The notes: a model not told the origin generated them from the sequence alone. A DNA stretch of 60,860 nt from Candidatus Saccharimonadales bacterium (GCA_041600715.1 JBFIJM010000004.1:1-60860); one strand, 5' to 3'. Shown: positions 1-60,860, counted from the stretch's first letter. Program-made: numbers and translations.

Positions 1-40
1 ATAAAAACATGTAATTTAATGGTTGGATAAATCTAGAAAA

Positions 41-991
41 ATGAATTCGTATATTAATTATTCAATGTCGACGCCCGTAGCAAAATCTCAAATTTACATG
101 ACGGAATTAATGAAGTCAAAATTAATAGGTGTCATCTGTATTGACATTATCAAATACGTAGATTTACTCGAAGGTACTCTGCAACATAAACATATACATA
201 CTAATACAATTAATTGTATTATTCAACTCCAAGATGGTCGGCTGGCGAGTTGTGGTAAAACAATCATTATTTGGAACCTGGATGGTAAAATTATTCATAA
301 TTTTACACATACCGATTGGGTGGTACGTTTTGTCATTCAACTCCAAGATGGTCGGTTGGCAAGTTGTAGTGAAGATAGGTCAATAATTATTTGGAACCTG
401 GATGGTAAAATTATAAATAATTTTACACATACCGATTGTATATATTCTGTCATTCAACTCCAAGATGGTCAGCTGGCAAGTTGCAGTGGTAAAACAATTA
501 TTATCTGGACCCTGGATGGTAAAATTATGAATAAACTTACTGGGCATACCGATTGGATAAATTCTATGATTCAACTTCAAGATGGTCGACTGGTGAGTTG
601 TGGTTGGGATAAATCAATCATTATTTGGAACTTGGATGGTAAACAAATTAGCCAACTTACGGGGCATACCGATGATGTATATTCTGTCATTCAACTTCAA
701 GATGGTCGGTTGGCGTGTTGCAGTGGTAAATCAATTATTATCTGGACCCTGGATGGTAAACAAGTTAACCAACTCACGGGGCATACCGGTTCGGTAAATT
801 CTCTAATTCAACTTCAAGATGGTCGGTTGGCGAGTTGTAGTTGGGATAAATCAATCATTATTTGGACACCGGATGGTAAACAAGTTAGCCGACTTACGGG
901 GCATACCGATTATATATATTCTATCATTCAACTCCAAGATGGTCGGCTGGCGAGTTGCAGTAGGGATAAATCAATGATTATCTGGGGATAG
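41..991 (+). CDS. F-box-like / WD40-repeat protein, 7 blades (array copy 1)
   Basis: The track ORF 23..991 opens on TTG. The first ATG is at 41, and the ATG conserved across paralogs is at 65. Seven ~41-aa repeats fit the consensus LTGHTDxVxSxIQLQDGRLASCSxDKSIIIWxLDGK (WD40-like GH...IIW blades). The N-terminal segment ELMKSKLIGVICIDIIKYVDLL looks F-box-like. Confidence 0.8.
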   Translation: MNSYINYSMSTPVAKSQIYMTELMKSKLIGVICIDIIKYVDLLEGTLQHKHIHTNTINCIIQLQDGRLASCGKTIIIWNLDGKIIHNFTHTDWVVRFVIQLQDGRLASCSEDRSIIIWNLDGKIINNFTHTDCIYSVIQLQDGQLASCSGKTIIIWTLDGKIMNKLTGHTDWINSMIQLQDGRLVSCGWDKSIIIWNLDGKQISQLTGHTDDVYSVIQLQDGRLACCSGKSIIIWTLDGKQVNQLTGHTGSVNSLIQLQDGRLASCSWDKSIIIWTPDGKQVSRLTGHTDYIYSIIQLQDGRLASCSRDKSMIIWG

Positions 992-2640: not shown

Positions 2641-2642
2641 AA

Positions 2643-7495: not shown

Positions 7496-8464
7496 TTACT
7501 TGTTAGTGGGTATAATAAATGTCTCAGGTGGGACAGCGATCGATGAGGTCGATGAGGTCGGTGAGGTCGGTGAGGTTACCCAAGACGAATTCTTCTTCAA
7601 TTCCTCCATCATGTTTTCAACGGGGCCAACTTTTCGCAGGTAGAACGCGAAATATGCATGGAGTTTTTTTGCTAACACTGGCATATCGAGGTAGTGGACT
7701 GTAAGAATCATATTAGTCAAACACTCCATGAAGTTCTCAGATTTAGAGATTGGTCCATTGATAATGGCATAATCGCTACCAAGGATACCCTCTAAGGTTG
7801 AATTCTTGTCTAATGGTTGTCGTGGTGCAGGCAATTCTTCGCCATTTAGATCACAGTGTTTAATATAATCATACATGAGATTATAACCTTCTTTAAATCC
7901 TTCTTTAAGTTCAACTTTAGATTCTTTGAACCCGCCTCCTTCAAGTGCTGAGTAAAATACGCCAATCATTTTGGCCGATCGTTTAGATATTGGGTATTTT
8001 GTATCTTTAAACACCAAAGTATAAATTTCATCAGCATCGTCATCAAGACCACCCATTTCTTCTTGCTTTTCGTCGGCGCGAAGTTTATTGAATATCAATG
8101 ATTTTTCGATACGTGAAGTATATGTTCGGAGATGTTTTAGTTCTTTTTTTGACCAGGTTAGTAGATTAATTTGGTCCATGTCGGATATTTTTTTAGTCTT
8201 CGCTGCCTCAGTTAATTGAGCATTGAAGAGTTTCAACATATCATCTTCTTTTTTACCTTTGGCCTGACTCGCGTTAGCCCACAAGGCCGCGGCTGATCGT
8301 AATTTAAGCCCATTAATTAATTCATCAGAAGCTCCAATCAACGATATGCAGATAGATATTTTTGCTTCCAGGGTAGGGTCCTTTACTTTTTTCTTAATTT
8401 CCTGATGAAATTTCTTGAGGGCTGCGGCGGCTTTAATATCTTCATTATCGAGACTCTTAGACAT
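7496..8464 (-). CDS. Hypothetical protein, possibly BTB/SKP1-like C-terminal half
   Basis: 322-aa ORF. The region YTLVFKDTKYPISKRSAKMIGVFYSAL...LMYDYIKH loosely fits a BTB/POZ pattern. The C-terminal TSPTSPTSSTSS is encoded by a 9-bp repeat at 7542..7577. Confidence 0.55.
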   Translation of the reverse strand: MSKSLDNEDIKAAAALKKFHQEIKKKVKDPTLEAKISICISLIGASDELINGLKLRSAAALWANASQAKGKKEDDMLKLFNAQLTEAAKTKKISDMDQINLLTWSKKELKHLRTYTSRIEKSLIFNKLRADEKQEEMGGLDDDADEIYTLVFKDTKYPISKRSAKMIGVFYSALEGGGFKESKVELKEGFKEGYNLMYDYIKHCDLNGEELPAPRQPLDKNSTLEGILGSDYAIINGPISKSENFMECLTNMILTVHYLDMPVLAKKLHAYFAFYLRKVGPVENMMEELKKNSSWVTSPTSPTSSTSSIAVPPETFIIPTNK

Positions 8465-9646: not shown

Positions 9647-10552
9647 CTAAACCGAGATAGGAAGTTGCATATACCCATTTATAATTCGGTCTCGAATGGC
9701 GTCGAATGGATCTTTACTCGCCGATGGTTGTGGAAAAAGCTGCTTACTCACCGAAAGTGGGGCGGTTGCCGTCGTTAGTTGTGGCTGATGGATTTCTTTG
9801 CTCTCGTCAAGGTCACTCTCACTATCTTCTTTACTCTCGTCAAAGTCGCTCCCACTATCTTCGGACGAGGAACAGTTGATAATGAGACCTTTCATATTCA
9901 GTTCAAGACTAGATAAAGACGAATGCAGGTGATTGGTGGGCGCATTCCTCAGATTATTGACGGCTTGTAAAACATTCGACGATGCTCCAGTAAACATGTA
10001 GTCGGTTATGGACATGGATGTTTGATGTGGTATATTACTATCCAAAGTAACAACAACTTGTCCACCGTCTCGACGCCAGAACACAGGCTCGACTTCGAAG
10101 AAATACTTGGCGAACATTTCTGGCCAACGAAGAACGACAAACTGGAAGTCTGAAATCGCCTCCATGGCATACGGCGACCGAAAGTCGTGTCGTGGTAGAC
10201 TAATACCTCCTCCTGGCATAAACCGCGGCTTTAACCTCATCGGTTCCATAATGACGAGAGATTCGGCGGACGGTATTAGTGGAAATGCATACAATGAACC
10301 TAACACTATAGAAACTGGGTTAATCTGCTCGGTTAACTCTCGCATTTGATCTAACGTAGTCGCTTTGTTAGCTAGTATTAGTATGTTAACGAGATCCTGA
10401 TATGCCCGACCATTTCTCAAGTTTCCTCTTGGGATAAGCGCTGCGTTCGTCATGGCAAAATATACATTAAGTTGAGCTTCCTCCGTCAACCTCTTCCCAG
10501 TGAGGAATGGAATCATCGACTGGGGCATTTGGATATACCTAATGTCTTGCAT
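9647..10552 (-). CDS. Hypothetical protein with acidic Ser/Asp/Glu-rich C-terminal region
   Basis: 301-aa ORF with an ATG start. Confidence 0.6.
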   Translation of the reverse strand: MQDIRYIQMPQSMIPFLTGKRLTEEAQLNVYFAMTNAALIPRGNLRNGRAYQDLVNILILANKATTLDQMRELTEQINPVSIVLGSLYAFPLIPSAESLVIMEPMRLKPRFMPGGGISLPRHDFRSPYAMEAISDFQFVVLRWPEMFAKYFFEVEPVFWRRDGGQVVVTLDSNIPHQTSMSITDYMFTGASSNVLQAVNNLRNAPTNHLHSSLSSLELNMKGLIINCSSSEDSGSDFDESKEDSESDLDESKEIHQPQLTTATAPLSVSKQLFPQPSASKDPFDAIRDRIINGYMQLPISV

Positions 10553-11797: not shown

Positions 11798-12526
11798 ATG
11801 ATTTGGATATTCATTATTACACTTATACTTGTTATTTATGTATGTCGAAAAGATATGTTTGTTAAAATACCGTCGCCGCGAAATTGGGTGACATGTTTAC
11901 CGGCCGACGCGGATGCAAGTGAGGAATCAGAATCGGAATCGGAATCGGAATCGGAATCGGGAAGCACGATGGATCTATTTTCATCAATCCCATCACCAAT
12001 TCCATTAATACCATCTTTGAACGATGTATTTGCAGATAAGGTGTCAAAATTATGTGGATGGAACATTTCATTTATCTGTGAGGTCAACAATAATAAATTA
12101 TTTCTTGGGAATTGGGTGGGTAGTGCAAATAAAAATATTCTTCGTGAACTTGGGATAAAAAAAATACTATGCCTAAATAAATACAAGAAGCCCGAATATT
12201 TACTCAACACGTATGAAGAATTAGGAATTGAACATAAACATATAGATATTAATGATCATGCTGAAGAAAATATTGCACAATACTTTGACGAGTGTTATGA
12301 TTTTATTGATAAACCTCTTCCCGCGGGCGCAGGTATATTTATTCATTGCACAGCCGGCATCTCTAGATCATCAACCATAACTATCATGTATTTGGCCAGA
12401 AAAAATAACTGGTCTATTGATGAAGCATATCAATTTGTCAGCGCGCAAAGAAATTGTATTCAGCCTAACGATGGATTTATGCAACAACTACAGGCCGATG
12501 CAAATGCTCGTGTAATAGCTGCGTAG
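11798..12526 (+). CDS. Dual-specificity protein phosphatase with N-terminal membrane anchor
   Basis: Active-site loop HCTAGISRS (HCxxGxxR, nt 12344..12370) in a DSP-like context (IFIHCTAGISRSSTITIMYL). ATG 11798 was chosen because TATACTATATA lies directly upstream; ATG 11777 is an alternative. The (ES)6 repeat is encoded at 11924..11959. Confidence 0.8.
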   Translation: MIWIFIITLILVIYVCRKDMFVKIPSPRNWVTCLPADADASEESESESESESESGSTMDLFSSIPSPIPLIPSLNDVFADKVSKLCGWNISFICEVNNNKLFLGNWVGSANKNILRELGIKKILCLNKYKKPEYLLNTYEELGIEHKHIDINDHAEENIAQYFDECYDFIDKPLPAGAGIFIHCTAGISRSSTITIMYLARKNNWSIDEAYQFVSAQRNCIQPNDGFMQQLQADANARVIAA

Positions 12527-21336: not shown

Positions 21337-21381
21337 TAATAGTTATAGATTTAGTAATAGTTATAGTTAGTAGTCTAATGT

Positions 21382-22451: not shown

Positions 22452-23024
<573 letters not shown>

Positions 23025-36373: not shown

Positions 36374-36411
36374 CGATGTGGATTTATGTTATAAAAAAAT
36401 CAAATTCAATT

Positions 36412-39761: not shown

Positions 39762-40109
39762 ATGTCATCCTTCATTGATGGTATGCGCTTTTGCCTTGGT
39801 GCATGCTTCACAATGTTAATGCTATACATGTGCGTGTATGGCATTATTGCGTTGTTATTGAAGCGTGCATCTTCGCAGGTTTGTACATCACGTGCATTGA
39901 TTGTGGCGGTCTCGCTTGAATATGCTTCATTTTCCAACGAAGTTATTGGTTTTGAATCAGTTTCTGTAAATATTATCAAGATTACTGGGAAAGTGATGAA
40001 ACCGGATCAAGTACGTGAATATATTAAAAATCAATATAAAGATAACATCAAGTTCCGAAAACGTGAAGAATTTTTGAAAAACCTATTGAACAGAATAACC
40101 ATTAGTTAG
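39762..40109 (+). CDS. Hypothetical small protein (uncertain)
   Basis: 115-aa ATG-initiated ORF with a hydrophobic N-terminus. The competing minus-strand ORF 39734..39979 opens on TTG. The stop codon lies in the first unit of the 12-bp tandem repeat. Confidence 0.35.
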   Translation: MSSFIDGMRFCLGACFTMLMLYMCVYGIIALLLKRASSQVCTSRALIVAVSLEYASFSNEVIGFESVSVNIIKITGKVMKPDQVREYIKNQYKDNIKFRKREEFLKNLLNRITIS

Positions 40110-40157
40110 TTGCTTAGTTAGTTGCTTAGTTAGTTGCTTAGTTAGTTGCTTAGTTAG
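40102..40157. repeat. Intergenic 12-bp tandem repeat (TTAGTTAGTTGC) x ~4.6
   Basis: Read directly from the sequence. Every unit carries TAG twice on the plus strand and TAA twice on the minus strand. Confidence 0.9.
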
Positions 40158-42087: not shown

Positions 42088-42849
42088 ATGGCTTATCGTT
42101 CGGCTTCCAACCAAACACCTACCATCCCCTATAATGGACAGGGTCAAAAATATAACCAATATACTTCTCGTCACCACCTTTGTAGATGTGATCAATGCAT
42201 GCACCCGCGACCATTTCAGCATCATGCCGATCACCATGATAATAAATCTACAGGGTATAATACTGGACCCCACCCCGACCATCGGCAACCACGTGCACCA
42301 CGGCAGCTACGTGCACCACGGCAACCACGTGCACCACGGCAACCACATCATCCTAGTCAAGATTCGCCCCATTCTCAGCGTAGCAGTAGTCCGGCACAGC
42401 CTAAACAACCACAAGCTATGGCTAAATCTAAGAAGTTAGGTGTGGACACTGTAATGGCAATAGTTAACATTGATAAGGGTACTGTATTCGTGCGAGTCTC
42501 AAATAAGGGGCAGATATCAGTCCAAGCTGCGATGGCCAAGCGTGGCGAGACTCAATTCAACACCGTTGAGCGGGTCTTAATGGACGAAACTGGTAATCGC
42601 CCGAGATCTAATAGCGAACTCACCTCTTTAAAGAGCGAGAAGTTTCCTGAGGTCGCGTTCGTTGCTTTCCAGGATCCGTCATTCGAGCTTCGTCATTTTC
42701 GTCCGTCCCATTATTTCAAGGATAAAATACAATGCTTAATTGAAGTCCCACTTGCCGACCTTGCTAAAGGTGCTGTCACGGATCAGATGCGAGTTCCTCC
42801 ACACGCCCTTGCCGTTGAGTTTGCACAACTCCTCCTTGCGAAAAAGTGA
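42088..42849 (+). CDS. Hypothetical protein with His/Pro/Gln-rich N-terminus and (PRAPRQ)n repeat
   Basis: 253-aa ORF. An 18-bp repeat lies at 42284..42347. Confidence 0.6.
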   Translation: MAYRSASNQTPTIPYNGQGQKYNQYTSRHHLCRCDQCMHPRPFQHHADHHDNKSTGYNTGPHPDHRQPRAPRQLRAPRQPRAPRQPHHPSQDSPHSQRSSSPAQPKQPQAMAKSKKLGVDTVMAIVNIDKGTVFVRVSNKGQISVQAAMAKRGETQFNTVERVLMDETGNRPRSNSELTSLKSEKFPEVAFVAFQDPSFELRHFRPSHYFKDKIQCLIEVPLADLAKGAVTDQMRVPPHALAVEFAQLLLAKK

Positions 42850-48100: not shown

Positions 48101-49698
48101 CATCAACTGACATACTGGTGCATAATATACATTCCGATAATTCTTCTAAATGTGTATTTCCCAAATGCTACACCGACGAATTTGGTCAAGCGAAGACTGA
48201 TAAATTAATAAAAGACTTGAAGGATATCTTTACTATTATTTTTAAGGTGTATAAATCTAAATGTTATGATAGCTCGGACCATTGTTACAACGTTTTTGGT
48301 GCTGACATAATGGTTACCGATAAATATGAAACGAAAATCATAGAGCTAAATCAAGAACCTGGTAAAAAGTATTTATCTGAGTCGACCGAATTATTCGATC
48401 ATTATACGCAAAATCTACAAGAGCTTGTGATTAATCCAGTATTTGGCCCTCCAACCACTGAGTGGAAAGATAAACATTCATATGTGCAAGTTGGTGGGCC
48501 TAAGCTCAGCAATGGTAAATCTTCATCATCGCAGATAGGAGGAGATAGAGATGCGAGTGATGCGAGTGATGCGAGTGATGACGAAACTAAAAAACAAATT
48601 TATGAAGGTGAAAAACACACCTTCGCCGTTGAGTCGGATTATTTTGCCCCATACCTAAATAAGAAAATAATAGAACTTGGTGCTGGGATGTGGGAAGAAT
48701 TTTCTTTATCGTCGTCGGCCAGACAAGGTGATCAAAAAATATCATTCCTCTACATGGATAATCTATCACTTCCTTGGAAAAAATATAAAAATACCCATGC
48801 AACTGTAAAAAATGTAGTCGATAATACTAAATATAGCATTGCCGATAAAGCAAACTTATATCAAAATCTTGCCGGGCCTGTGCGTAAGAAATTTATGCCA
48901 CTTCAGTATACGATAGATTTAGGTACAGAACCGGATGGCTTCACCAAATGGTGTGAGTGTAACTGTGAGAAATATCGTAAAATTATTAAACACGACATGT
49001 GGATGCTTAAACCAGTAACTGGGTACAAAGGTATTGGGATAAAAATGGTGGATAATTTCGGCGACTTCAAACGTCATCTTAGAGAGCATCGTCAAGAAGA
49101 TCATGCACATGGGTCTGAGCGATCCAAACGAGTTGGTGTATGGGTCCTATCTAAATACATAGATCCACCGCTGCTGTTTAAAGGGCATAAATTTCATATA
49201 CGTCTATATTATTTAGTTAGTCAAATCGAGGGCAAAGTACATGGGTATATATTTAAATCTGGCCACCTTTATATTTCAAAAAAGAAATATAAAATGTCTA
49301 GCCATTCGACAGACATCCATAATTTGCATCTTGATAATTCTAACATAGATTTATTCCCTGAAAGTTACGCCAAAGAATTTGGTGTTGATGCATGTGTTAA
49401 ATTATACACGGAAATCTATAAAATGTTTCAAGGAGTATTCGACATAACTAAAATTGGATGTTTCGACGACTCTTCAAATTGTTACTATATCTATGGAGCC
49501 GACATTATGGTTACAGAAGACGGGTGTCCCAAACTACTGGAGGTTAATACCTCTCCACATCTTGGTGTTATGAACATTAATAAAACGTTAGCCAACCGAT
49601 ATGTCACTAATATATTCTCATTAGTATTAAATCCTATATTCGGCGAACCACCTGGATTTCCTAAGAATAATGATTATATTCTCATTGGGGAGAAATAA
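45151..49698 (+). CDS. Protein with four tandem tubulin-tyrosine-ligase-like (TTL, ATP-grasp) modules
   Basis: The track ORF opens on TTG at 45133; the first ATG is 45151. Four modules start at about nt 45151, 46290, 47455 and 48610. Each carries W(I/M)xKP..G..G.GI, WV(L/I)(S/A)(E/K)YI(E/D).PLL..G.KFH(L/I)R.Y and (F/Y)G.D(V/I)M......K(L/I)(L/I)E(I/L/V)N. Confidence 0.8.
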   Translation: MSKPTFIIDAGAGEDKSTGSNMSLNLKKAYILKRKLEMFGWKDVGVRLGKPPKFVDLLYLDSFADWRKYKNTRCYFKNLVKDSILSISDKSLLYHNLGKIDSHIRDTFMMRQIDVNITDSSSIEACEKLFDGRMWIFKPVAGWSGKGIQVFNSYNGFKEYAESIDVENWKFFKSKSSRASIWVLSEYIENPLLIDGHKFHLRLYFTVYKNTKGVKSFLHNTGIIMVSKFKYDLSSSDIVIHSVHSDDSEKHEFPREYIKYFTEKNAKKLHNDLLKIFKAVSKIDFMECFEESKKCFYDFGCDVMITDKYETKLIEINDKAGISSFITIDKFGKCYVPNLMKLIFDPVFFPKLTNPEKKIRYTDTDYTLISVGEGGDVNKSTTKTFTVYLYNTDTGFQKHSIDYFNRYGWTHIPISRNMKGHINYLDYSLDHWRYFQNVTSDIRSSADPSRKRWKDKSSLYNVLGSTPRGKLIRDKFMMKQYDVDSNNIMGESKQSEKFKEFKNIFDGRKYILKPITGWKGLGIKITASHNEALKHFNQTNQMDWIYHKDKQSESTKWVIAEYIDNPLLIQGCKFHIRAYFMVYLDSGFKTGATPKIKGYLFKTGIIMQAIKKYRPSNYDDDQVHNIHAGNSIKKIYPNTFIKEFGLATTNKINTNMQEYFIELFNIINTGCYPETKNCFTLYGADIMFDASFNVKILEINSSIGRKSLSEKKEAYEFMNNIFSICIVPNYGKPAKWKDLKAYWVIGEKCIDDKKSAGSIGKISGSERQKTYLIDLKVKDSKPFEKQLTKYLDDNGWVNHLDLFAPDDGIDHTVGLLIHKKYDWKSYDKYKSTIHASTENERSITNKSAIYDISGIKKYMMPQYTIDSRNSDDLERVKKYFTGKIRFIVKPMMGSIGMGIFIANTHQALLKNLGSSHVVIYDMYKKSADVYRWILAEYIENPLLLKGRKFHIRVFYLVTVINGVIRAYIYGKNYIMYATKKYNKTSTDILVHNIHSDNSSKCVFPKCYTDEFGQAKTDKLIKDLKDIFTIIFKVYKSKCYDSSDHCYNVFGADIMVTDKYETKIIELNQEPGKKYLSESTELFDHYTQNLQELVINPVFGPPTTEWKDKHSYVQVGGPKLSNGKSSSSQIGGDRDASDASDASDDETKKQIYEGEKHTFAVESDYFAPYLNKKIIELGAGMWEEFSLSSSARQGDQKISFLYMDNLSLPWKKYKNTHATVKNVVDNTKYSIADKANLYQNLAGPVRKKFMPLQYTIDLGTEPDGFTKWCECNCEKYRKIIKHDMWMLKPVTGYKGIGIKMVDNFGDFKRHLREHRQEDHAHGSERSKRVGVWVLSKYIDPPLLFKGHKFHIRLYYLVSQIEGKVHGYIFKSGHLYISKKKYKMSSHSTDIHNLHLDNSNIDLFPESYAKEFGVDACVKLYTEIYKMFQGVFDITKIGCFDDSSNCYYIYGADIMVTEDGCPKLLEVNTSPHLGVMNINKTLANRYVTNIFSLVLNPIFGEPPGFPKNNDYILIGEK

Positions 49699-51511: not shown

Positions 51512-52123
51512 TTAGATGTATAAGCCGCATTTGATACATATCCATGTTGTCTGAGTAGACACATGGAGGTCGACGCCATAGAATACTCCCATATTATGAA
51601 AGGCGTCGGTTTCTAAATTCACAGATCGATATTCCCAAGTGTGTTCTGGGGGAGACAGACGTTGGCGACTAGCGAGTTCCCGGGCACTCTGAGTTGTACA
51701 TGCTGTAATTTTATCAAGAGTTTTTCGCATTGCTGTGAGGCCGTAGCTGTATTCTTGATGCCTTACACGTAAGTTGGAGATTGCAAGCTCACGGTTCTCA
51801 AGACACGTGATTGTCGGTACAATATCGTCGTCAGCCTGCAGACTTAAACAAGCATTGGTTATGTTTTTATCATGTTTAGTTACCGCTTTAGATATTCCCG
51901 ACAAGATGATCTGGGTAGTTATGATATGGCCTGCTCTACATTTAATAGCATTACTTACTTGCCCGTCGTATAAATTTACAGTTCGATGGGTGTCCGGATC
52001 GTTTGACGTTGCGACCACAACTGGAGGGACCCATTTCGACTCACTTGAGGTGGTCGAGGTGGTCGAGGTGGTCGAGGTGGTCGAGGTGGTCGAGGTGGTC
52101 GAGGTGGTCGAAGACGAAAACAT
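51512..52123 (-). CDS. Hypothetical Cys-rich protein with N-terminal (TST)n repeat
   Basis: The track ORF opens on TTG at 52165; the first ATG is 52123. A 9-bp repeat x7 lies at 52047..52109. Confidence 0.55.
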   Translation of the reverse strand: MFSSSTTSTTSTTSTTSTTSTTSTTSSESKWVPPVVVATSNDPDTHRTVNLYDGQVSNAIKCRAGHIITTQIILSGISKAVTKHDKNITNACLSLQADDDIVPTITCLENRELAISNLRVRHQEYSYGLTAMRKTLDKITACTTQSARELASRQRLSPPEHTWEYRSVNLETDAFHNMGVFYGVDLHVSTQTTWICIKCGLYI

Positions 52124-52799: not shown

Positions 52800-55187
52800 T
52801 TATAAGAGAGATTCGAGGAATTCATCATCACTCATAGTTTTCCGTTCATATTTTTGACATATTAAGTACCTAACCATATTCTCCAAGTTAGAGAATGAAC
52901 AATGTATACACCACTCTTCTCCTGTTAATAAATTTAATACCCGAAGGTTAGTTATGTTAGCGAGCCACCCGTATACTGCGCATTGTAGAAAATGGGTATC
53001 TGTGAGGGTATGTACACATTTTAATTCCCATATCACTTGATCGGTCGACGTGGTCGACGTGGTCGACGTGGTCGACGTGGTCGACGTGGTCGACGTGGTC
53101 GACGTGGTCGACGTGGTCGACGTGGTCGACGTGGTCGACGTGGTCGACGTGGTCATACTCCTGCCCATCGCCAATACATCTACGCGTCCAATAATAGTCC
53201 TCCCAAGGATATGTTTACTATACTCAACTTCGAAGCGAGCATTTTTGGACAACCTATTTGATAAACGAGCGACAGCTGCCATCAATTTCTTTTTACCAAT
53301 CCACGTATAATTATGTATCTGGTTTAATTTATGTACGTAGTTTGACTGTGTAGCGCAATATTCATTAGCAAGTTTAAGAAGAGTTTGTGGGTTGAATGGT
53401 ATAGGCTTTTCACCGATAGTCATTTTCCCGGTCATCTTATATTCAAGGAATGCCGGTATAGCAACGCCGGTGATTTCCCCAACCTGTTCATATAGATCTT
53501 GTTGTTTTGTCTTGATCGGTATATCAATAATAACACCTGGGTCAACGGTTTGTTCAGGTACAATATAGCTTAATGCATGGTTGATAACTTTTTGAGGGAG
53601 ATGTTTAAGTAGGTTAGTTACGCCGATCTTATTATTTTCGCCACCATCGCTTATCTTTGGAGCGATTCTATTCATAAGCCTAAAAGCACACGTCTTCGGT
53701 ACTTGCTCGACATTTATAAATGGCAAATAATCATGCTCGTAGTGGTGAAATAACGTTAATAATTCGGTTGCTCTAGTAATTGCTACGTATAATGTATTTG
53801 GGCAGACCATTGGATTTTCTCCCCTGGCGTAGAATTTAAAGTAACTTTCATCGAAATTAAATACAATAATACATTTACGCTCAAGCCCTTTCGCTTGATG
53901 AAAGGTAATGAATGATAACTTACCCTTAAGCACGTCATCATCGAGTCTTTCCTCGTCAGACCCCGGCACAAATATGGGTATACCAAAACCTGATAAAGTG
54001 TTCGCCAGTCGTATCACCGGTGATTTTGATGATTTAACACTAGGACTAAGTATAAAGATGTCTTCAGGTTTGTATCTGATAAGATACAGTTGAAGAATCT
54101 CGGCCACCCTGCTTGAAAAAGCATTACACACGTAGTATTGAACATCTGGCCCGGATTTCACCGCATTCATGCGGTTACCTTTGAGGCATGCCAGGTTAAT
54201 AAAATTTGCCATCTGATGTGTTATACGGTATGAAGTCGATAATTTCTTAGATGTCCAGGTAGCTGGTTGTGAGCCTGCCGAACTAACCGGCAAGCTCCAT
54301 ATTCTATCGACGAGAGTAATAAATCGATGGTCCGCCCCGTTAAATTGATATATTGACTGATTCTTATCTCCAAGTATTATAAGTTGACATATACCATTTT
54401 GTCGTATTATCATCGACATGAATTTATAATATAATAAAGACATGTCTTGGGCTTCATCGATGATTATAATGTCATAATGCCGGCTTGGTAAATCTTCCTC
54501 ACCTAAATCTATGGGGTCAAGATCATCGCTCGACTCTTCGTCTTCGTCTTCGTCTTCGTCTTCGTCTTCGTCTTCGTCTTCGTCTTCGTCTTCGTCTTCG
54601 TCTTCCGACCCGATGGCAAATTTTTTACCTGCTTCGTTATCATCTATGTCACTACCATCTCCATACATGGAGACTGTATTTGTTGATTTCGTCTTTATTG
54701 AGTTGCGAACTACTCTGATTAATCCAGCATCGGTCGAGCACGACGTGTTATAATATTTATACCCGTACGAATGGTAACTATGTACTTCGATATTTTTTAA
54801 ACCTATTTGTTGCACTTTTACTCGGGTCTCCATTTTTAGTTTAGCATTATAGGTTATCAGAAGGATTTTTTTATCCAAGTTAGCCCTAGCGAGATGTAGA
54901 ATTGTGGTTGTCTTTCCACTGCCGGCAATCGCATCAACAACAATATTACCCTTTACCTCTATAATTTCCTTCTGCTCTAGTGAGGGTTTCGGTAAAATAC
55001 TCACCCACATGGATGATCGGGATATTTTTTTATCAGTCGGAGGATGCTCACCAAAAATGTACTTGTACTCAGGGAGCGAGGTTAATATTTTACCCTCGCA
55101 CATATTAGTAAACACTAACTCATCAGAGTCTTCGTCAGATTCATCATCTGAATCGATCATGGAACGTACGAGTTTTAGTCTACTCAT
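52800..55187 (-). CDS. UvrD/Rep-like SF1 helicase fused to a C-terminal PD-(D/E)xK (RecB/Cas4-like) nuclease
   Basis: Walker A AIAGSGKTTT (nt ~54911..54927), motif II IIIDEAQD, FITFHQAKGLE, LYVAITRATE. The C-terminus has GRVDVL ... ELKCV ... QCAVYGW (D, ExK and QxxxY nuclease motifs). The (ED)n repeat is at 54535..54600 and the (TST)12 repeat at 53044..53151. Confidence 0.8.
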   Translation of the reverse strand: MSRLKLVRSMIDSDDESDEDSDELVFTNMCEGKILTSLPEYKYIFGEHPPTDKKISRSSMWVSILPKPSLEQKEIIEVKGNIVVDAIAGSGKTTTILHLARANLDKKILLITYNAKLKMETRVKVQQIGLKNIEVHSYHSYGYKYYNTSCSTDAGLIRVVRNSIKTKSTNTVSMYGDGSDIDDNEAGKKFAIGSEDEDEDEDEDEDEDEDEDEDEDEESSDDLDPIDLGEEDLPSRHYDIIIIDEAQDMSLLYYKFMSMIIRQNGICQLIILGDKNQSIYQFNGADHRFITLVDRIWSLPVSSAGSQPATWTSKKLSTSYRITHQMANFINLACLKGNRMNAVKSGPDVQYYVCNAFSSRVAEILQLYLIRYKPEDIFILSPSVKSSKSPVIRLANTLSGFGIPIFVPGSDEERLDDDVLKGKLSFITFHQAKGLERKCIIVFNFDESYFKFYARGENPMVCPNTLYVAITRATELLTLFHHYEHDYLPFINVEQVPKTCAFRLMNRIAPKISDGGENNKIGVTNLLKHLPQKVINHALSYIVPEQTVDPGVIIDIPIKTKQQDLYEQVGEITGVAIPAFLEYKMTGKMTIGEKPIPFNPQTLLKLANEYCATQSNYVHKLNQIHNYTWIGKKKLMAAVARLSNRLSKNARFEVEYSKHILGRTIIGRVDVLAMGRSMTTSTTSTTSTTSTTSTTSTTSTTSTTSTTSTTSTTSTDQVIWELKCVHTLTDTHFLQCAVYGWLANITNLRVLNLLTGEEWCIHCSFSNLENMVRYLICQKYERKTMSDDEFLESLL
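53044..53151. repeat. 9-bp in-frame tandem repeat (GTCGACGTG) x12
   Basis: Counted unit by unit. It encodes (TST)n on the minus strand, inside the nuclease domain of 52800..55187. Confidence 0.95.
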
Positions 55188-55989: not shown

Positions 55990-57417
55990 ATGGCAAAAGA
56001 ACAAGCTCTATCGGGCATATCGGGCGACTGGAAGAAGGTGTTGAACGGCGGAAAAGCCGCTAAACTACTAGTAAAAGTGTTTGAAGAACTCAAGGACGTT
56101 GATGAAAAAACCTTGTGTCCAAGCATAAAGGACATCTTTAATGCGTTTAGATTCCCATTTGAGCAAGTATCGGTGATTATCATAGGACAAGATCCATATC
56201 ATACCCCTGGCCACGCTCATGGTTTAAGTTTTAGCTCTTTGGCAGACACGGTACCGCCATCCCTTCACAAAATTTATAAATGTCTACAGACAGATGGATT
56301 AATTGGGTCAGATGCAGGTCCCGCATCGGGGGACCTGACCCCTTTGCGAGATCAAGGGGTACTTTTACTCAATAGTGCATTGACTACTGTTCACGGTAAA
56401 CCTGGTGCTCATATTAAGATTTGGAGTGCCTACATCGACTCCGTAATACATCGAATAAACGCTCTTTCTCTAAAGAAAGATAATAAACTTATATACTTGC
56501 TTTGGGGCGCCGATGCGCAGAAAAAGGCTGATGCAAAAAAGAAAAACCTAATGGACAAACACATAGTACTTACTGCAGCGCATCCAATGGCTTACCTAAA
56601 AGATTCCGACGAATTATCGTTCGTCCAGTGCGGACACTTCCTGCAGGCGAATAAATTGCTGAAGGGCATGGATAAACATGTTATTGACTGGGATTGGTCG
56701 TCTTCGTCGTCTTCGTCGCCTGAGTCGCCTGCGTCGCCTGAGTCGCCTGCGTCGCCTGCGTCGCCTGCGTCGCCTGCGTCGCCTGCGTCGCCTGCCGTGA
56801 CTACAGAAAAATCCAGGGCACAGATTCGCAGATATTTTACAGGAGGTGAACGAACATGTGTATGCTTTACCGATGGGTCATGCAGTCCAAATAAGAGATG
56901 TCCGGAAGCGCAAGGTGGATACGCAACTGTATTTACTCAAGGATTGTTAAACGATACTCGCATCTACGGATCTCTAAATACTGAAAAGAACTTTGCGTCA
57001 AATATGCGTGCAGAAGGATATGCTATTCTTCGAGGTCTTCAATATGCAAGTGATGAAAAGCATATTGAAGACTGGGATGTCTTTGTTGTCGTCACCGATA
57101 ATCTTAAATGGATGGAAATGATAACTCAGGACATGGCATCTTGGTCACCAGAAAAATTCGCCACTCAGTCAAATCCGGATATTACTTTACCACTATGGCA
57201 GCTATGGAAGAAGATGGAGTTTGAAAATGAAAAGAAGATGATTATTCTCCACATGAAATCCCACGATAAAGATGGGTGGAGCAGGTACCCTGATGGTAGC
57301 TACGAGAAATATTGTTACGAGCAAAATAAGTACGTAGATATTTTAGCTAAATATGCTCGTGAAGAAATGGACCGAGGTGATGAGTCTATTGATGCAGCTG
57401 AATATGAATCAGAATAA
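55990..57417 (+). CDS. Fusion of a family-1 uracil-DNA glycosylase with RNase H1
   Basis: UDG part: VIIIGQDPYHTPGHAHGLSFS (water-activating GQDPYH loop) and TAAHPMAYL (HPSPLS-equivalent). RNase H part: CFTDGSC...GGYATVF, NMRAEGYAILRGLQYA, VVVTDNLKWMEMI, HMKSH...NKYVDILAKYA (D-E-D-D pattern). The (SPA/SPE)9 linker is encoded at 56716..56796. Confidence 0.8.
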   Translation: MAKEQALSGISGDWKKVLNGGKAAKLLVKVFEELKDVDEKTLCPSIKDIFNAFRFPFEQVSVIIIGQDPYHTPGHAHGLSFSSLADTVPPSLHKIYKCLQTDGLIGSDAGPASGDLTPLRDQGVLLLNSALTTVHGKPGAHIKIWSAYIDSVIHRINALSLKKDNKLIYLLWGADAQKKADAKKKNLMDKHIVLTAAHPMAYLKDSDELSFVQCGHFLQANKLLKGMDKHVIDWDWSSSSSSSPESPASPESPASPASPASPASPASPAVTTEKSRAQIRRYFTGGERTCVCFTDGSCSPNKRCPEAQGGYATVFTQGLLNDTRIYGSLNTEKNFASNMRAEGYAILRGLQYASDEKHIEDWDVFVVVTDNLKWMEMITQDMASWSPEKFATQSNPDITLPLWQLWKKMEFENEKKMIILHMKSHDKDGWSRYPDGSYEKYCYEQNKYVDILAKYAREEMDRGDESIDAAEYESE

Positions 57418-57489: not shown

Positions 57490-59985
57490 ATGGAAAAAGC
57501 ATTGCGCGATTTGATAAAAACTCGTTGGATCCAACTAAATGTTTACAACGGCATGTTATTTAATGACTTCTTTAGCCCAGTGTCTCTGAAAAAACCTAAA
57601 GCATATTATATTAAGGCCCGGCAGATTTTAGAGAGAAATCTCTCGGATATCCAGAATCAAGCTAAGAAAACACCAGTTCATTTACATAAAGGTTTACTAG
57701 ACAGGGTGAACCGATTATTTGACTCATATAAGAGTATACTCAATGATAACTTTGCTAAACATGTTATAGATACCGAACGAGTAGAAATTAAGACACCTCG
57801 TACACAACCTTTACCAGATATTGTCTATAAAGGAGTCGACGTAAAGCAGTTTAGTAAAAGTGAGGAGGCCCATATGAAAGCAATCCGAGAGGCTAAATTG
57901 GCGGACGCAATCAATCGGCATAAAGCTGTAATTGATGCCAAGAATCAGGCTAACGCGTTGCTACAACAGATGGAACAAAACCTAAGCAACTTAAATAAGA
58001 TGCTACAAAATATCCGTGAATTGGAAGATAAAATTAAAGAAGAAGAGGATAAATGGGTACGAGCTAAGGCTGAAGCTAATTCAGTTATTTTGGAAGCTCA
58101 GCGGAAAGCTGAGGAAGCTCAGCGGGAAGCTGAGGAAGCTCAGCGGAAAGCTGAGGAAGCTAGGTTGGAAGCTCAGCGGGAAACTAGGTTGGAAGCTCAG
58201 CGGAAAGCTGAGGAAGCTAAGCTGAAATCTGAGAAAGCTGAGCGGGAAGCTCAGCGGGAAGCTCAGCGGAAAGCTGAGGAAGCTCAGCGGAAAGCTGAGG
58301 AAGCTCAGCGGAAAACTCAGCGGGAAGCTGAGGAAGCTCAGCGGGAAGCTAAGCAGAAAGCTGAGGAAGCTGAGCGGGAAGCTAAGCAGAAAGCTGAGGA
58401 AGCTAAGCAGAAAGCTGAGCGGGAAGCTAAGCAGAAAGCTGAGCGGGAAGCTAGGTTGGAAGCTGAGCGGGAAGCTAAGCAGAAAGCTGAGCGGGACGCT
58501 AGGTTGAAAGTTGAGCGGGAAGCTAGGTTGGATGCTGAGGTAGCTAAGTGGAAAGCTGAGAGAGCTAAGTTGAAAGCTGAGGAAGCTCAGCGGGAAGCTG
58601 AGCGGGAAGCTGAGGAAGCTAAGTTGAAAACTCAGCGGGAAGCTGAGGAAGCTAAGTTGAAAGTTGAGCGGGAAGCTAGGTTGGATGCTGAGGTAGCTAA
58701 GTGGAAAGCTGAGGAATCTGAGCGGGAAGCTAAGCAGAAAGCTGAGCGGGACGCTAGGGTGAAAGATCAGATAATTAAGTTGGCAGCTGAGTTGAAAGAT
58801 GAGAGAGCTAAGCAGGAAGCTGAGCGGAAAGCTGAGGAAGCTAAGTTGAAAACTAAGCATGAAGCTGAGCGGAAAGCTGAGCGGGAAGATAAACCGGAGG
58901 AGATAAAAACAGAAGCTCAAAGTAGTAAAACGAAGGCGGAAGCGACCTGGATTGAACAAACTAGTCATGGTCCTGCGAAATCAAAATCCACTTCTAATGT
59001 CGAAAGTGTTCAAGAATACCTTTTAAATCAACAAAAAAAATCAGAAATGGCATTCAAACAATGCTTAACTGAAGAATTCAAATGGGTGGATAGAATAGGC
59101 AATCCTTATTTCGGTGTGGAACATACTGAAAAATTCGTGACAGATATGATTCATAGAGAACATTGCTTTAAGCTATTGAATATTATGAATTGGTACTCTG
59201 AAAAATTAAAAAAAATTAAGAGTTCTAAAAAATCGAGTATTGATTTGAGTGATCTTAAACAAGAAGAGACGATGATGATAGGTGCTGAGCAAAAAAAGTA
59301 TTTAGTCTCTAAAGAAGAAAAAATCAAGTATCTTATGAATAAATATCCGGAAATTTTCCGGAAACGTGAAGAGCATAAGAAACGTTTGGAAAAAAAAAAG
59401 AAAAAAGATTTATTAGTAAAGGAACATAAAGGGTATACGGAACTTTTGGAAGAAAAAAAGAAAGAAAAAGAATTATTGGTACCAAAATACTCCTCATTTA
59501 TCTCGCCCATATCCATAAAACAGATAAATGAGATAACTAAATTAGATAAGGAAATTAGTAAGCTGGAAAGTAAGGTTAGATTACTCAGGGAACGAATAGA
59601 ATTAATTAATATTACAGGAGGTCGTAATGAGTCGTCACCGAGCACATCAATAGAAAGAAAACATTTATTAAAACAATCTGATGTAGACGATGCCTCGCCA
59701 ACTTCATTGTCTACACCTCTTTTAATCGAACCCACAACAGAAGATTCATCTACCAACATGTTGTATGTAAACAACCCAAACATATTTACATCGGGAGGAA
59801 GAACAAAATATACGGGGGGGCAAGAAATTAATGATGTCGATCCGACTAGCGCAATCATATTAGGAGTGGGATGTGGGATGGCATTTATTATGCAGAACAT
59901 TTTAGTATTTATAATAATAGCTCTTATTATTATTATATATTATACTTGTACACCTTTACTGGTTCAAAATGAAGTCTGCGTCTGA
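57490..59985 (+). CDS. Tail-anchored long coiled-coil protein with ~270-aa E/A/K/R/Q 8-residue repeat region
   Basis: 831-aa ORF. The repeats (AQRKAEEA / AEREAKQK) are encoded at about 58081..58900. C-terminal TM segment: ILGVGCGMAFIMQNILVFIIIALIIIIYY. Confidence 0.7.
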   Translation: MEKALRDLIKTRWIQLNVYNGMLFNDFFSPVSLKKPKAYYIKARQILERNLSDIQNQAKKTPVHLHKGLLDRVNRLFDSYKSILNDNFAKHVIDTERVEIKTPRTQPLPDIVYKGVDVKQFSKSEEAHMKAIREAKLADAINRHKAVIDAKNQANALLQQMEQNLSNLNKMLQNIRELEDKIKEEEDKWVRAKAEANSVILEAQRKAEEAQREAEEAQRKAEEARLEAQRETRLEAQRKAEEAKLKSEKAEREAQREAQRKAEEAQRKAEEAQRKTQREAEEAQREAKQKAEEAEREAKQKAEEAKQKAEREAKQKAEREARLEAEREAKQKAERDARLKVEREARLDAEVAKWKAERAKLKAEEAQREAEREAEEAKLKTQREAEEAKLKVEREARLDAEVAKWKAEESEREAKQKAERDARVKDQIIKLAAELKDERAKQEAERKAEEAKLKTKHEAERKAEREDKPEEIKTEAQSSKTKAEATWIEQTSHGPAKSKSTSNVESVQEYLLNQQKKSEMAFKQCLTEEFKWVDRIGNPYFGVEHTEKFVTDMIHREHCFKLLNIMNWYSEKLKKIKSSKKSSIDLSDLKQEETMMIGAEQKKYLVSKEEKIKYLMNKYPEIFRKREEHKKRLEKKKKKDLLVKEHKGYTELLEEKKKEKELLVPKYSSFISPISIKQINEITKLDKEISKLESKVRLLRERIELINITGGRNESSPSTSIERKHLLKQSDVDDASPTSLSTPLLIEPTTEDSSTNMLYVNNPNIFTSGGRTKYTGGQEINDVDPTSAIILGVGCGMAFIMQNILVFIIIALIIIIYYTCTPLLVQNEVCV

Positions 59986-60860
59986 GGCGAAACAGTTCGT
60001 CAATTCATTTTTTAATATGATGCGCGAAAAAAACGAAAACACTCGTTCTGTGGAATTTTCTGTCGCTCATAAACATATCCTGCAAGACATTGACAATGAG
60101 CTACATCTTTTTAATGTTGGGAAGGGAGTATATAAAGGATTAACCACACCTCAGAAAGAAAAAAAATACCGAGCAACTCTTAAGCATATTTTATCAAAGA
60201 CATATAATGGGTATAAAAGTCATATAGAGGATGTTTTTGTTGAAACTGACACATCAGTGACTTATACTGAGGAAGAATTGGAACAAAAAATCATTGAGAA
60301 AGAACGACTAATAACTAGAATTATTGAACCGCGTCCATATGAATCTGGACAATACTTAGATGAAATAATAAAAAATCAGGAAGCCGCCATTCGCAATGAG
60401 CACGAGCTGCTTAATGACCTTGAAGCTAAAAATACTATTGTTGTAGATGATATCCGAAAAGCCGCTGGCGTGGACCCGGAAAATCCACAAACGGTCGACG
60501 AAATAATAAAATTTAACAGCGAATATCGTGCGGCTAAGCTCGAAAAATTGCAGGTTGTACGGGAGCAGAAAAGTGGAATTGATGAATTAGTTCGGCTAAC
60601 CAAGCTAATTCAAGGTTTAAAAGGCGACCCAGTACAGTTCAATGAAGTTGTTAAAGAGATACATCGTATAATTAAAAAAACCGAGGAAAAAATTGACGAC
60701 AACCTAAAAATACTACATGAAAAACACTTAAAAGAAGGAAAAGTGCGTATAACAAAAGAAGAAGAAGAAAACACAGCCCGACAAGAGGAGGAGGAGGAGG
60801 AGGAGGCGCGACGTAAAGCGGATGCGGAGGCGCGACGTAAAGCGGATGCGGAGGCGCGAC
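59969..60860 (+). CDS. Hypothetical coiled-coil protein, 5' partial (runs off window end); absent from supplied ORF track
   Basis: I translated by hand from ATG 59969 (MKSASEAKQFVNSFFNMMREKNE...) and found no stop up to 60860. It ends in poly-Glu and a 24-bp repeat encoding ARRKADAE. It overlaps the upstream gene by 17 nt. Confidence 0.6.
   Translation, partial: MKSASEAKQFVNSFFNMMREKNENTRSVEFSVAHKHILQDIDNELHLFNVGKGVYKGLTTPQKEKKYRATLKHILSKTYNGYKSHIEDVFVETDTSVTYTEEELEQKIIEKERLITRIIEPRPYESGQYLDEIIKNQEAAIRNEHELLNDLEAKNTIVVDDIRKAAGVDPENPQTVDEIIKFNSEYRAAKLEKLQVVREQKSGIDELVRLTKLIQGLKGDPVQFNEVVKEIHRIIKKTEEKIDDNLKILHEKHLKEGKVRITKEEEENTARQEEEEEEEARRKADAEARRKADAEAR

Follow-up and report, generated by a model that had tools for sequence, protein, structure and literature searches.

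We find that the window, the whole 60,860-nt stretch of DNA analysed here and probably a Mimiviridae-like fragment of an NCLDV giant virus, carries tandem repeats in a large share of its genes. The best explanation, to which we assign a probability of about 0.8, is that these arrays are coding micro- and minisatellites of a giant virus, produced by untargeted slippage or unequal recombination and then passed through a selection filter.

Running Tandem Repeats Finder (TRF) on the window with a score cut-off of at least 50 and merging the overlapping calls, we obtained 33 arrays covering 4142 nt in total (Table 1). In comparison, dinucleotide shuffles gave 0.26 ± 0.50 arrays (maximum 2; n = 100) and within-gene codon shuffles gave 1.89 ± 1.08 (maximum 6; n = 100), and thus the density is not matched by shuffled sequence. 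Twenty-two of the 53 ATG-ORFs hold at least one array (20 without the two WD40 genes), close to the figure of about 20 genes in a first-pass annotation of this DNA. TRF recovered 20 of the 22 items listed there, with essentially the same coordinates. The item at ~37207..37240 proved weak (score 42), and the one given as 58081..58900 is a degenerate array that represents an older, diverged repeat. Two unit lengths were revised: the xRAP array, described as 15 bp x 17, has a four-residue unit of 12 bp, and the array at 34328-34389 has a unit of 27 bp instead of 30 bp. TRF also added the arrays at 9794-9862, 20298-20360, 22838-22869 and 28788-28822, the intergenic arrays at 21332-21366 and 40102-40157, and the 120/237-bp WD40-blade arrays (221-985 and 1529-2094). 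The WD40 arrays differ in kind, being structural domain repeats and not low-complexity arrays.

Table 1. Tandem arrays of the window, with their units, positions, strands and contexts.
Unit	Array	Position	Strand	Context
WD40 blade	120 bp = one blade, ~80% identity	221..2094	+	two paralogous WD40 genes (221-985, 1529-2094)
TSP/TSS	9 bp x 4.1	7540..7576	-	near C-terminus, residues 297-309 of 322, ORF 7496-8464
EDSGSDFDESK	33 bp x 2.1	9794..9862	-	ORF 9647-10552
ES	6 bp x 6.3	11923..11960	+	residues 69-82, N-terminal to DSPc phosphatase domain (128-259)
SAE	9 bp x 7.1	13795..13858	+	residues 31-52, methyltransferase-VP39 protein
GV	6 bp x 8.8, perfect	15496..15548	+	residues 598-616, methyltransferase-VP39 protein, VP39-like part
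SSKS	12 bp x 3.1, perfect	18183..18219	+	residues 362-374, capping enzyme
RKSAHPSQ	24 bp x 2.7	20105..20169	+	ORFan 19888-21336
PQLAxEYx	24 bp x 2.7	20298..20360	+	ORFan 19888-21336, within 198-bp internal duplication (19990-20167 / 20188-20365)
xRAP	12 bp x 21.9, GC 0.77	21044..21306	+	C-terminal tail, ORF 19888-21336
	18 bp x 1.9, AT-rich, GC 0.17	21332..21366	.	overlaps last bases of ORF 19888-21336, rest intergenic
EPEPEV	18-bp units inside 81/99-bp higher-order units	22549..22814	-	ORF 22452-23024
poly-Asp	6 bp x 5.3	22838..22869	-	ORF 22452-23024
TTTTAA, then TTAA	compound, 18 bp x 4.3, then 12 bp x 5.4; GC 0.72-0.75	24638..24762	+	ORF 24362-25357
KS	6 bp x 7.5, perfect, AT-rich, GC 0.31	26734..26778	-	residues 449-463, 754-residue SNF2-type helicase
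SLIF	12 bp x 2.9, AT-rich	28788..28822	+	small ORF 28685-29032, uncertain gene
DGQS	12 bp x 7.8	33516..33608	+	residues 26-57, ORF 33440-34891
SAYGGIVSP	27 bp x 2.3, perfect	34328..34389	+	ORF 33440-34891
MPKIKSTS	24 bp x 2.6	36324..36385	-	spans start codon of MYG1-like gene 35327-36373; unit brings its own ATG
DQDQTQDQD	weak, 6 bp x 4.7, 81% matches	37212..37239	-	813-residue SNF2 helicase
	12 bp x 4.7, perfect, AT-rich, GC 0.32	40102..40157	.	overlaps last bases of ORF 39762-40109, rest intergenic; stop codons on both strands; upstream of helicase gene at 40183
PRQPRA	18 bp x 3.8	42278..42346	+	ORF 42088-42849
DAS	9 bp x 3.4, perfect	48550..48580	+	residues 1134-1144, low-complexity stretch after TTL domain match 869-1095
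STT	9 bp x 7.2, perfect, GGTCGAGGT	52047..52111	-	residues 5-26, ORF 51512-52123
TTS	9 bp x 12.4, perfect, GGTCGACGT	53043..53154	-	residues 678-715, UvrD-type helicase
ED	6 bp x 11.8, perfect	54535..54605	-	residues 195-218, UvrD-type helicase, inside N-terminal ATPase region
SPA/SPE after poly-Ser	9 bp x 11	56697..56795	+	residues 236-269, UDG-RNase H linker
	degenerate 21/33 bp, 69-76% matches	58092..58892	+	E/A/Q/R/K-rich segment, ~270 residues, ORF 57490-59985
poly-Glu (GAG x 7), then EARRKADA	24 bp x 2.5, perfect	60785..60860	+	ORF running off window end

The in-frame unit lengths reported earlier were found throughout: all 30 ORF arrays of the window have a period divisible by three (3n). 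Checking 11 related loci, we found 58 of 60 coding arrays to be 3n compared with 9 of 23 non-coding arrays (Fisher p = 3e-8), the latter rate being about that of chance. Coding DNA was not denser in arrays. The window showed 5.2 coding and 5.8 non-coding arrays per 10 kb, and the relatives 0.5-7.1 and 0-40, respectively; because the non-coding DNA of the window amounts to only ~3.5 kb with 2 arrays, this comparison leans mainly on the relatives. An equal or higher non-coding density, together with a non-coding 3n rate at chance, is the signature of untargeted mutation plus purifying selection against frameshifts. Assembly or sequencing artefacts, which would not respect the reading frame, are an extremely improbable source. 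Repeats are known to trouble assemblers, and the related contig L003 starts and ends inside arrays. However, every coding array keeps a long ORF open in frame, the arrays contain internal variant units, and independently assembled relatives exhibit a matching pattern.

We compared the arrays with the closest relatives of the window, which share ~40% protein identity; no near-identical sequence was found in the collections searched. All five arrays compared (SAE, GV, SSKS, KS and SPA) lie in insertions missing from relatives at 30-46% identity. The SAE array forms an 18-residue insertion missing from two orthologues, the SSKS array a 21-residue insertion missing from 6 orthologues, and the KS array an insertion of ~50 residues missing from a 46%-identical orthologue, while the GV array sits inside a large insertion unique to the window. 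Residues 358-374 around the SSKS array have an AF2 pLDDT below 50, in a capping-enzyme model that is weak overall. These lineage-specific insertions, the many arrays that TRF scores as 100% perfect and the nine consecutive identical units of xRAP support the recent slippage-type origin that had been proposed.

The SPA array of the UDG-RNase H protein lies between the UDG (residues 59-219) and RNase H (290-454) domains, and in the AF2 model (mean pLDDT 87) the sole segment below 50, residues 240-271, matches the array. Across 24 homologues the linker is hypervariable, ranging from 0 to ~270 residues with repeats that differ by lineage. Orthologues carry independent repeats of their own, at different sites or built from different units, as in the linkers of P0036, P0037 and P0040; the capping-enzyme orthologue P0005 likewise has an independent NPPNSGK x3 repeat. 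The suggestion that arrays sit at domain junctions thus holds for UDG/RNase H. For the helicase lobes it depends on our reading of the sequence, by which the KS insertion would mark the start of the C-terminal lobe of the SNF2-type helicase; Pfam found no Helicase_C domain in this protein. The GV array falls within the window-only insertion in the VP39-like part of its protein. In one relative, the variants P0037 and P0182 are 100% identical except for one 18-residue linker unit; this is the one polymorphism found, and the metagenome assemblies behind it are liable to collapse repeats. Owing to this one-unit difference, the use of the arrays as VNTR markers is plausible by analogy.

Could the arrays be positively selected functional modules? 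They might serve as evolvable disordered tags that adjust how enzymes are recruited to the phase-separated viral factory or, in a variant of this idea, as parts of virion proteins that are rich in Ser/Thr/Pro and act in glycosylation or as spacers; in either case the virus would gain from rapid changes in their length. The arrays do have classic disorder and low-complexity compositions of acidic, basic and S/T/P/A classes, S/T-rich units occur in three genes, and the UDG-RNase H linker was repeatedly refilled by repeats across lineages. Several arrays lie in replication and transcription enzymes, which in mimivirus act inside the viral factory. In Nucleocytoviricota this factory is a condensate, and an IDR 'grammar' recruits client proteins to it (PMC12415211). 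However, the words 'repeat' and 'tandem' occur nowhere in that article, orthologues differ in the sequence, charge and length of their repeats and some have no linker, and coding density is no higher than non-coding density. We therefore regard selection for such modules as quite unlikely.

The units are indeed GC-rich, as claimed (0.55 compared with 0.40 in the rest of the host gene; higher in 22/27 arrays; Wilcoxon p = 1.3e-5), although not universally: the KS, SSKS, SLIF and NRTTYD units do not exceed background. Against a background of 0.38, the array GC was 0.58, while 0.514 was expected from the amino acids with the genes' own codon usage. Most of the GC excess, about two thirds, follows from amino-acid content. 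Counting each unit once, we found a synonymous GC3 of 0.50 compared with 0.33 expected (higher in 22/28 arrays; p = 0.0015). The GC excess correlated both with the number of copies (rho 0.38, p = 9e-4) and with the length of the array (rho 0.41, p = 3e-4; n = 75); within the window alone, the correlation of GC3 excess with copy number was only suggestive (rho 0.35, p = 0.07). Within 60 nt of the array edges the GC content was 0.446, then 0.424, compared with ~0.39 further away, which we attribute either to older units that have decayed or to the composition of linkers. Relative to locus GC, non-coding arrays were AT-rich (-0.115) and coding arrays GC-richer (+0.079; p = 1e-4).

Mutation plus filter alone does not explain the GC3 excess, which would need an added GC-dependent step of expansion or retention. 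It is possible, as a tentative refinement of the main explanation and not a replacement for it, that a GC-biased molecular process drives the arrays and the peptide content follows, either because stable misaligned intermediates increase slippage or through GC-biased repair or gene conversion at repeats. Apart from the GC3 excess and the correlations above, arrays use the Thr/Ser codons ACC/ACG/TCG where ACT/ACA/TCT prevail elsewhere, and high GC has been associated with low-complexity regions whose length varies through slippage (PMC11285758). The amino-acid share of the excess and the p value of 0.07 within the window weigh against such a process, as do the array Pro codons (CCT/CCA, GC3 0.07), the perfect AT-rich arrays (KS, SSKS and intergenic 40102-40157), and the coding arrays of the most AT-rich relatives (L007 and L008), which exhibit no GC enrichment.

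Arrays of this kind have known counterparts. The WSSV ORF75/94/125 repeats and the central variable region of ASFV B602L are coding VNTRs. Short-sequence-repeat variation is also described for alphaherpesviruses (PMC3192842). The window resembles these viruses in having in-frame arrays in viral genes from slippage or recombination. Their strain-to-strain copy-number differences are demonstrated and serve genotyping, whereas the window is known from one sequence; its number of loci per kb is unusually high, its units are for the most part shorter (6-27 bp), and several of its arrays lie within conserved enzymes. The Emiliania huxleyi virus EhV-86 carries GC-rich 'family B' repeats, and chloroviruses carry proline-rich PAPK-type repeats. 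The likeness lies in GC-rich, in-frame Pro/Ala/Ser-rich repeats scattered through the coding DNA of an NCLDV genome of ~40% GC. EhV family B is a recognisable sequence family, but most units of the window bear no relation to each other, a point in favour of independent origins.

The exception is the STT and TTS pair, whose near-identical units in neighbouring genes could reflect array-to-array copying instead of independent slippage. About 1 kb separates the two arrays, which share a strand and have units that differ by one base (GGTCGAGGT and GGTCGACGT), and the TSP array at 7540 shows 63% in-register similarity (family D3). However, 9-nt units encoding the same simple peptide converge easily, the STT and TTS flanks have no similarity, and all other arrays have unrelated units, making it doubtful that some arrays spread between genes by gene conversion or recombination.

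Outside viruses, slippage-derived low-complexity regions of Plasmodium and other eukaryotes are a close likeness. These too are lineage-specific simple-repeat insertions in loops, linkers and termini of conserved proteins, linked to disorder and dependent on composition (PMC11285758, PMC5762703 and PMC10124876). AT-rich Plasmodium has AT-coded repeats (Asn/Lys), whereas the window, at 38% GC, has mostly GC-coded ones (Ser/Thr/Pro/Ala/Arg/Glu). Bacterial contingency loci, which are phase-variable simple sequence repeats (PMC3315296), are similarly mutational hotspots in genes. They switch genes on and off via out-of-frame units or promoter spacing. The window coding arrays are all 3n, so only length can change.

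We propose that head-to-tail repeats would arise genome-wide, in non-coding DNA at least as often as in coding DNA. Units of 6-12 bp would come from replication slippage, and those of 18-81 bp from unequal recombination or from the duplication of several units at once. In reading frames, as the period pattern shows, survival is limited to arrays with units divisible by three. As shown by protein positions and for six arrays (five compared with orthologues, one also by AlphaFold), they persist only where added residues are tolerated, namely inter-domain linkers, enzyme surface loops, N- and C-terminal tails and largely low-complexity ORFans. Surviving units encode disorder-promoting S, T, P, A, G, E, D, K, R and Q, a content that by itself raises the expected GC from 0.38 to 0.51. 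The synonymous GC3 excess and the greater length of arrays with GC-richer units suggest that expansion or persistence comes more easily to seeds rich in GC.

In the window and the related loci, we found no evidence of a dedicated, purpose-built diversification system. The density and frame pattern speak against the earlier idea of a genome-wide way to generate variability, and many of the arrays occur in housekeeping enzymes, for which hypervariability would bring no evident benefit. What results is a set of disordered insertions that are lineage-specific and turn over fast, with the hypervariable linkers as a by-product. Array copy number probably varies between strains of this virus. Such a pattern of in-frame slippage repeats is already known from large DNA viruses.

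Using TRF calls with a score of at least 50, we obtained 33 merged arrays totalling 4,142 nt in the window, many of which match at 100%. This number far exceeded both null models: 100 dinucleotide-preserving shuffles gave 0.26 ± 0.50 arrays (maximum 2), and 100 within-gene codon shuffles, which preserve the codon usage and amino-acid content of each gene, gave 1.89 ± 1.08 arrays (maximum 6). The arrays lie in 22 of the 53 ORFs (20 without the two WD40 genes), and every one of the 30 arrays inside an ORF has a period divisible by 3. With high-identity, head-to-tail copies far above composition-matched chance, they are coding micro- or minisatellites, in-frame arrays of putative VNTR (variable copy number) type. 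The first-pass annotation had listed 22 repeat items throughout the window, with unit lengths divisible by 3. TRF recovered 20 of them in place, and the repeat observation is confirmed with minor corrections. Two items, one of them rich in E/A/Q/R/K, are weak or degenerate; units described as 15 bp and 30 bp proved to be 12 bp (21.9 copies) and 27 bp, respectively; and several further arrays had been overlooked.

Coordinates of genes, arrays and sites in the window and, where a locus name is given, in related contigs
Feature	Position	Remark
Methyltransferase fused to VP39-type poly(A)-polymerase regulatory/cap 2'-O-methyltransferase domain	13703-16675	Pfam
Its counterparts in relatives	L002:3452-5596; L004:825-2957
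mRNA capping enzyme, triple-domain	17098-19848	Pfam
Tubulin-tyrosine-ligase-like (TTL-like) protein, large	45151-49698	Pfam
UDG-RNase H fusion	55990-57417	Pfam
Helicases, three SNF2/ResIII-type and one UvrD-type		Pfam
Dual-specificity phosphatase, GNAT acetyltransferase, MYG1-type exonuclease, dNMP kinase, thioredoxin		Pfam
WD40 proteins and pentapeptide-repeat proteins		Pfam
AAAATTGA sites, examples	1269, 3502, 8499, 10586, 24312, 28694, 36406, 39705, 42039, 52162, 52793, 55946
WD40-blade arrays	221-985; 1529-2094	120-bp unit
WD40 paralogues	41-991; 1297-2100
Truncated third WD40 copy	2415-2699
ORFan with internal duplication	19888-21336	copies 19990-20167 and 20188-20365
Array resembling STT and TTS in unit	7540-7576
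STT array	52047-52111	minus-strand gene; perfect
TTS array	53043-53154	minus-strand gene; perfect
Other perfect arrays, examples	15496-15548; 54535-54605; 56697-56795
Array with unit corrected to 12 bp	21044-21306	perfect
Array with unit corrected to 27 bp	34328-34389
Array with super-units	22549-22814	18-bp unit
Array across MYG1-like gene start	36324-36385	24-bp unit
Weak or degenerate items	37212-37239; 58.1-58.9 kb
Hexamer arrays at both ends of L003	L003:1-30; L003:11273-11310	also L002:9548-9705

The genome is most likely that of a nucleocytoplasmic large DNA virus (NCLDV). The 60,860-base window has a GC content of about 38% and carries non-overlapping ATG-ORFs on both strands, so that 94% of it is coding. 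A Pfam scan covering 47 of the 53 ORFs identified the listed genes, among which the triple-domain capping enzyme, the VP39-like methyltransferase, and the SNF2 and UvrD helicases are of NCLDV type; neither a capsid nor a polymerase gene was found within the window. The octamer AAAATTGA, which we take to be the early-promoter motif of Mimiviridae, is present in 20 copies where 9.6 ± 3.1 would be expected; 14 copies are correctly oriented and precede an ORF by 20-84 nt. The virus is therefore likely Mimiviridae-like. Its nearest proteins among 5.8 billion sequences are about 40% identical. In a search for near-identical sequence, an exact 42-mer had no match in viral, genome or metagenome contigs, and an exact window protein had none in the protein index. 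The TTL-like protein, with 1,515 residues, five TTL stretches and several TTL/ATP-grasp matches (E = 3e-102), is not what a virus usually carries. Comparing it with itself by BLASTP revealed no internal domain repeats and did not place its DAS array more precisely.

Two arrays are of a different kind. Their unit corresponds to one WD40 blade (Pfam WD40 E = 1e-38 and 1e-34), and they alone qualify as a structural repeat domain, the WD40 beta-propeller. The short GC-rich arrays matched no structural repeat family, giving below-threshold compositional matches only (PT, Trypan_PARP). The first 2,700 nt of the window are a threefold tandem repeat with a unit length of about 1.1-1.2 kb (38-287 matches 1270-1519 at 72% and 2388-2637 at 97%), yielding two WD40 paralogues, each composed of blade repeats of about 80% identity, and a truncated third. 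Elsewhere, an ORFan contains a 198-bp internal duplication at 72% identity together with three separate short-unit arrays.

For comparison, contigs of related giant viruses supplied 11 distinct loci, about 200 kb in total, which we processed in the same way as the window. Coding arrays occur at 5.2 per 10 kb in the window and 0.5-7.1 in the relatives, which places the window at the upper end of the relatives' range but within it. The density of non-coding arrays is 5.8 per 10 kb in the window and 0-40 in the relatives. The period class, in contrast, separates the two kinds of DNA (Fisher p = 3e-8). Coding arrays of the relatives have a period divisible by 3 in 58 of 60 cases, and their non-coding arrays in 9 of 23, near the unconstrained one-third; the window has only two non-coding arrays, both of this class. 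Composition differs as well. Compared with the locus in which they lie, the relatives' coding arrays are richer in GC by 0.079 on average (p = 1e-4) and their non-coding arrays poorer by 0.115 (p = 2e-4). No GC enrichment of coding arrays is seen in those relatives with the highest AT content (26-30% GC). Repeat generation therefore acts everywhere, and survival is what differs. It is very unlikely that the arrays are an assembly artefact, since they respect reading frames and the same pattern recurs in independently assembled relatives. One short-read contig, L003, opens and closes inside hexamer arrays. Assemblies thus appear to break at coding repeats, and repeat densities from metagenomes are probably underestimates.

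Two relatives, L002 and L004, are syntenic with the window over the methyltransferase-VP39 and capping-enzyme genes (in L002 also across the two SNF2 genes), so orthologues could be aligned directly. All five arrays aligned (SAE, GV, SSKS, KS and SPA, named after the encoded peptide) turned out to lie in lineage-specific insertions found only in the window. SAE forms an 18-residue insertion close to the N-terminus of the methyltransferase-VP39 protein, and GV sits inside a large window-only insertion in its VP39-like part. SSKS belongs to a stretch of 21 residues inserted in the guanylyltransferase domain and absent from six capping-enzyme orthologues, one of which (P0005) carries its own NPPNSGK x 3 insertion elsewhere. 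An AF2 model of the capping enzyme from a 7-sequence alignment has low confidence at residues 358-374, but its mean pLDDT of 64 is too poor to establish an SSKS loop. For KS, the insertion is about 50 residues long and is missing from an SNF2 orthologue at 46% identity. At 990 residues, the methyltransferase-VP39 protein is longer than its counterparts in the relatives (710-714). Several window-only insertions in the VP39-like part make up the difference, and some but not all of these are repetitive. Two motifs of the protein, ISDIMQS and LTDIRTN, hint at either a misalignment or a partial duplication within it. Being small insertions inside conserved viral genes, the arrays do not represent horizontally acquired GC-rich DNA.

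Other arrays occupy protein ends: STT covers residues 5-26, MPKIKSTS starts at residue 1, and xRAP, TSP and TTS form C-terminal tails. Some of the remaining arrays lie within largely low-complexity ORFans. No tRNA or Rfam family is associated with the arrays. The array that covers the beginning of the MYG1-like exonuclease gene starts 12 nt before the first ATG. Every MPKIKSTS unit holds its own in-frame ATG, so a change in copy number would add or remove alternative start codons. We rejected a phase-variable contingency locus, as all coding arrays have periods divisible by 3 and the only one that touches a start codon stays in frame.

The UDG-RNase H fusion, which is common in this metagenomic giant-virus group (the window and 24 homologues), carries its array at residues 236-269, between Pfam domains at 59-219 and 290-454. 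Its AlphaFold model has a mean pLDDT of 87 with both domains confident, and values below 50 are confined to residues 240-271, the array itself; the array is thus predicted to be a disordered linker between folded domains. Across 24 aligned fusions, both domains align well, while the linker ranges from none to about 270 residues. Its repeats are unrelated between lineages (DKENNSDEDSDEDD... in P0036, KKPKVDIDAKKTESD... in P0037, DKPDKPKKS in P0040 and SPA/SPE in the window); one linker position has been refilled with unrelated repeats. Comparing length variants within 90%-identity clusters, we found one clean unit difference: P0037 (538 residues) and P0182 (556) are 100% identical apart from one added 18-residue linker unit, KKPKVDIDAKKTESDVDA, a difference that could also come from assembly collapse. 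From the protein sequences, this appears to be a copy-number polymorphism in a related virus, exactly the kind that the first-pass annotation had predicted. Other candidates failed as repeat-unit variants: P0039 and P0183 differ in the start codon only, the indels of the P0058 cluster are not repeat units, and the aligned part of P0001 and P0032 has no indel. Further UDG homologues are fused to endonuclease III, PIF1-type helicase or photolyase domains (Pfam).

It is unlikely that the arrays are selected functional parts, either condensate client tags or glycosylated spacers. Only their composition speaks for such a role; that their sequence, their charge and even their presence are not conserved between orthologues speaks against it. 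We regard as a long shot the specific proposal that fast-evolving low-complexity insertions in enzymes of replication, repair and transcription are more than tolerated debris, namely adjustable client tags, in the sense of work on viral-factory condensates (PMC12415211), which set the partitioning of the capping enzyme, the VP39-like methyltransferase, the SNF2 and UvrD helicases and the UDG-RNase H into a phase-separated viral factory and are supplied quickly by a GC-dependent slippage bias. If true, coding VNTRs would be a tuning device for giant-virus factory organisation.

The claim that the units are GC-rich stood for most arrays. Consensus units average 0.55 GC against 0.40 outside arrays in the same genes, and 22 of 27 arrays exceed their host gene (Wilcoxon p = 1.3e-5), but the KS, SSKS, SLIF and NRTTYD units are AT-rich. 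Array codons have a GC content of 0.58; the same amino acids (S, T, P, A, E, D, R, G and Q are those repeated) at the genes' usual codon usage would give 0.514, and the background is 0.38. Therefore, about two thirds of the excess comes from the repeated amino acids. The rest is synonymous, with GC3 at 0.52 against 0.335 expected; counting one unit per array, it is 0.50 against 0.33 and raised in 22 of 28 arrays (p = 0.0015). The 60 nt beside the arrays are also elevated (0.446 and 0.424 against about 0.39), which we read as decayed older units or linker composition. In the window and relatives together, arrays with more copies have a larger GC excess (rho 0.38, p = 9e-4), and so do longer arrays (rho 0.41, p = 3e-4); period shows no such correlation. 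For the synonymous GC3 excess inside the window, the rise with copy number is only suggestive (rho 0.35, p = 0.07). The residual synonymous excess hints at GC-dependent expansion.

We infer the molecular process behind the arrays, its dependence on GC and a continuing variability in the window virus as follows. Slippage would make the short units; the longer and higher-order ones would come from unequal recombination or from duplication of several units at once, in both cases irrespective of coding. The 18-bp units arranged in 81/99-bp super-units are an instance of the longer kind. Purifying selection would eliminate out-of-frame arrays and those in structured regions, and the survivors would be in frame, built of disorder-promoting residues and located in linkers, loops and tails. 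GC-rich seeds seem better at expanding or persisting. The evidence supports the recent slippage-type origin and the hypervariable linkers of the first-pass reading but not its dedicated genome-wide mechanism. Array-to-array copying may have produced STT and TTS, which lie in neighbouring genes and have 9-nt units one base apart (GGTCGAGGT and GGTCGACGT), but it leaves all other arrays unexplained. The likeness of these units, shared by a third array, may reflect common origin, gene conversion or convergence. A retroelement-type diversifier was rejected: we found no reverse transcriptase or comparable domain in the Pfam-scanned ORFs, and the arrays are tandem, with no dispersed template/variable pairs.

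In-frame VNTRs are familiar from large DNA viruses, as in the WSSV typing loci, the central variable region of ASFV B602L and the GC-rich coding repeats of EhV-86. The window arrays are likewise in frame. Herpesvirus short sequence repeats offer the same comparison (PMC3192842). In eukaryotes, low-complexity insertions that arise by slippage in the loops and ends of proteins are well documented (PMC11285758, PMC5762703). Our search of the literature on giant-virus coding repeats returned general work on low-complexity regions and simple sequence repeats and no giant-virus-specific survey. Current understanding is not overturned: the window adds a dense and clean case, from a giant virus not described before, and no new kind of system. 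Its perfect arrays are candidate strain-typing markers for this virus and its relatives, and the arrays are places at which assembly of such genomes from short reads will break or collapse. Coding DNA, unlike spacers, shows filtering by frame and composition; mutation and selection jointly shape these low-complexity insertions.
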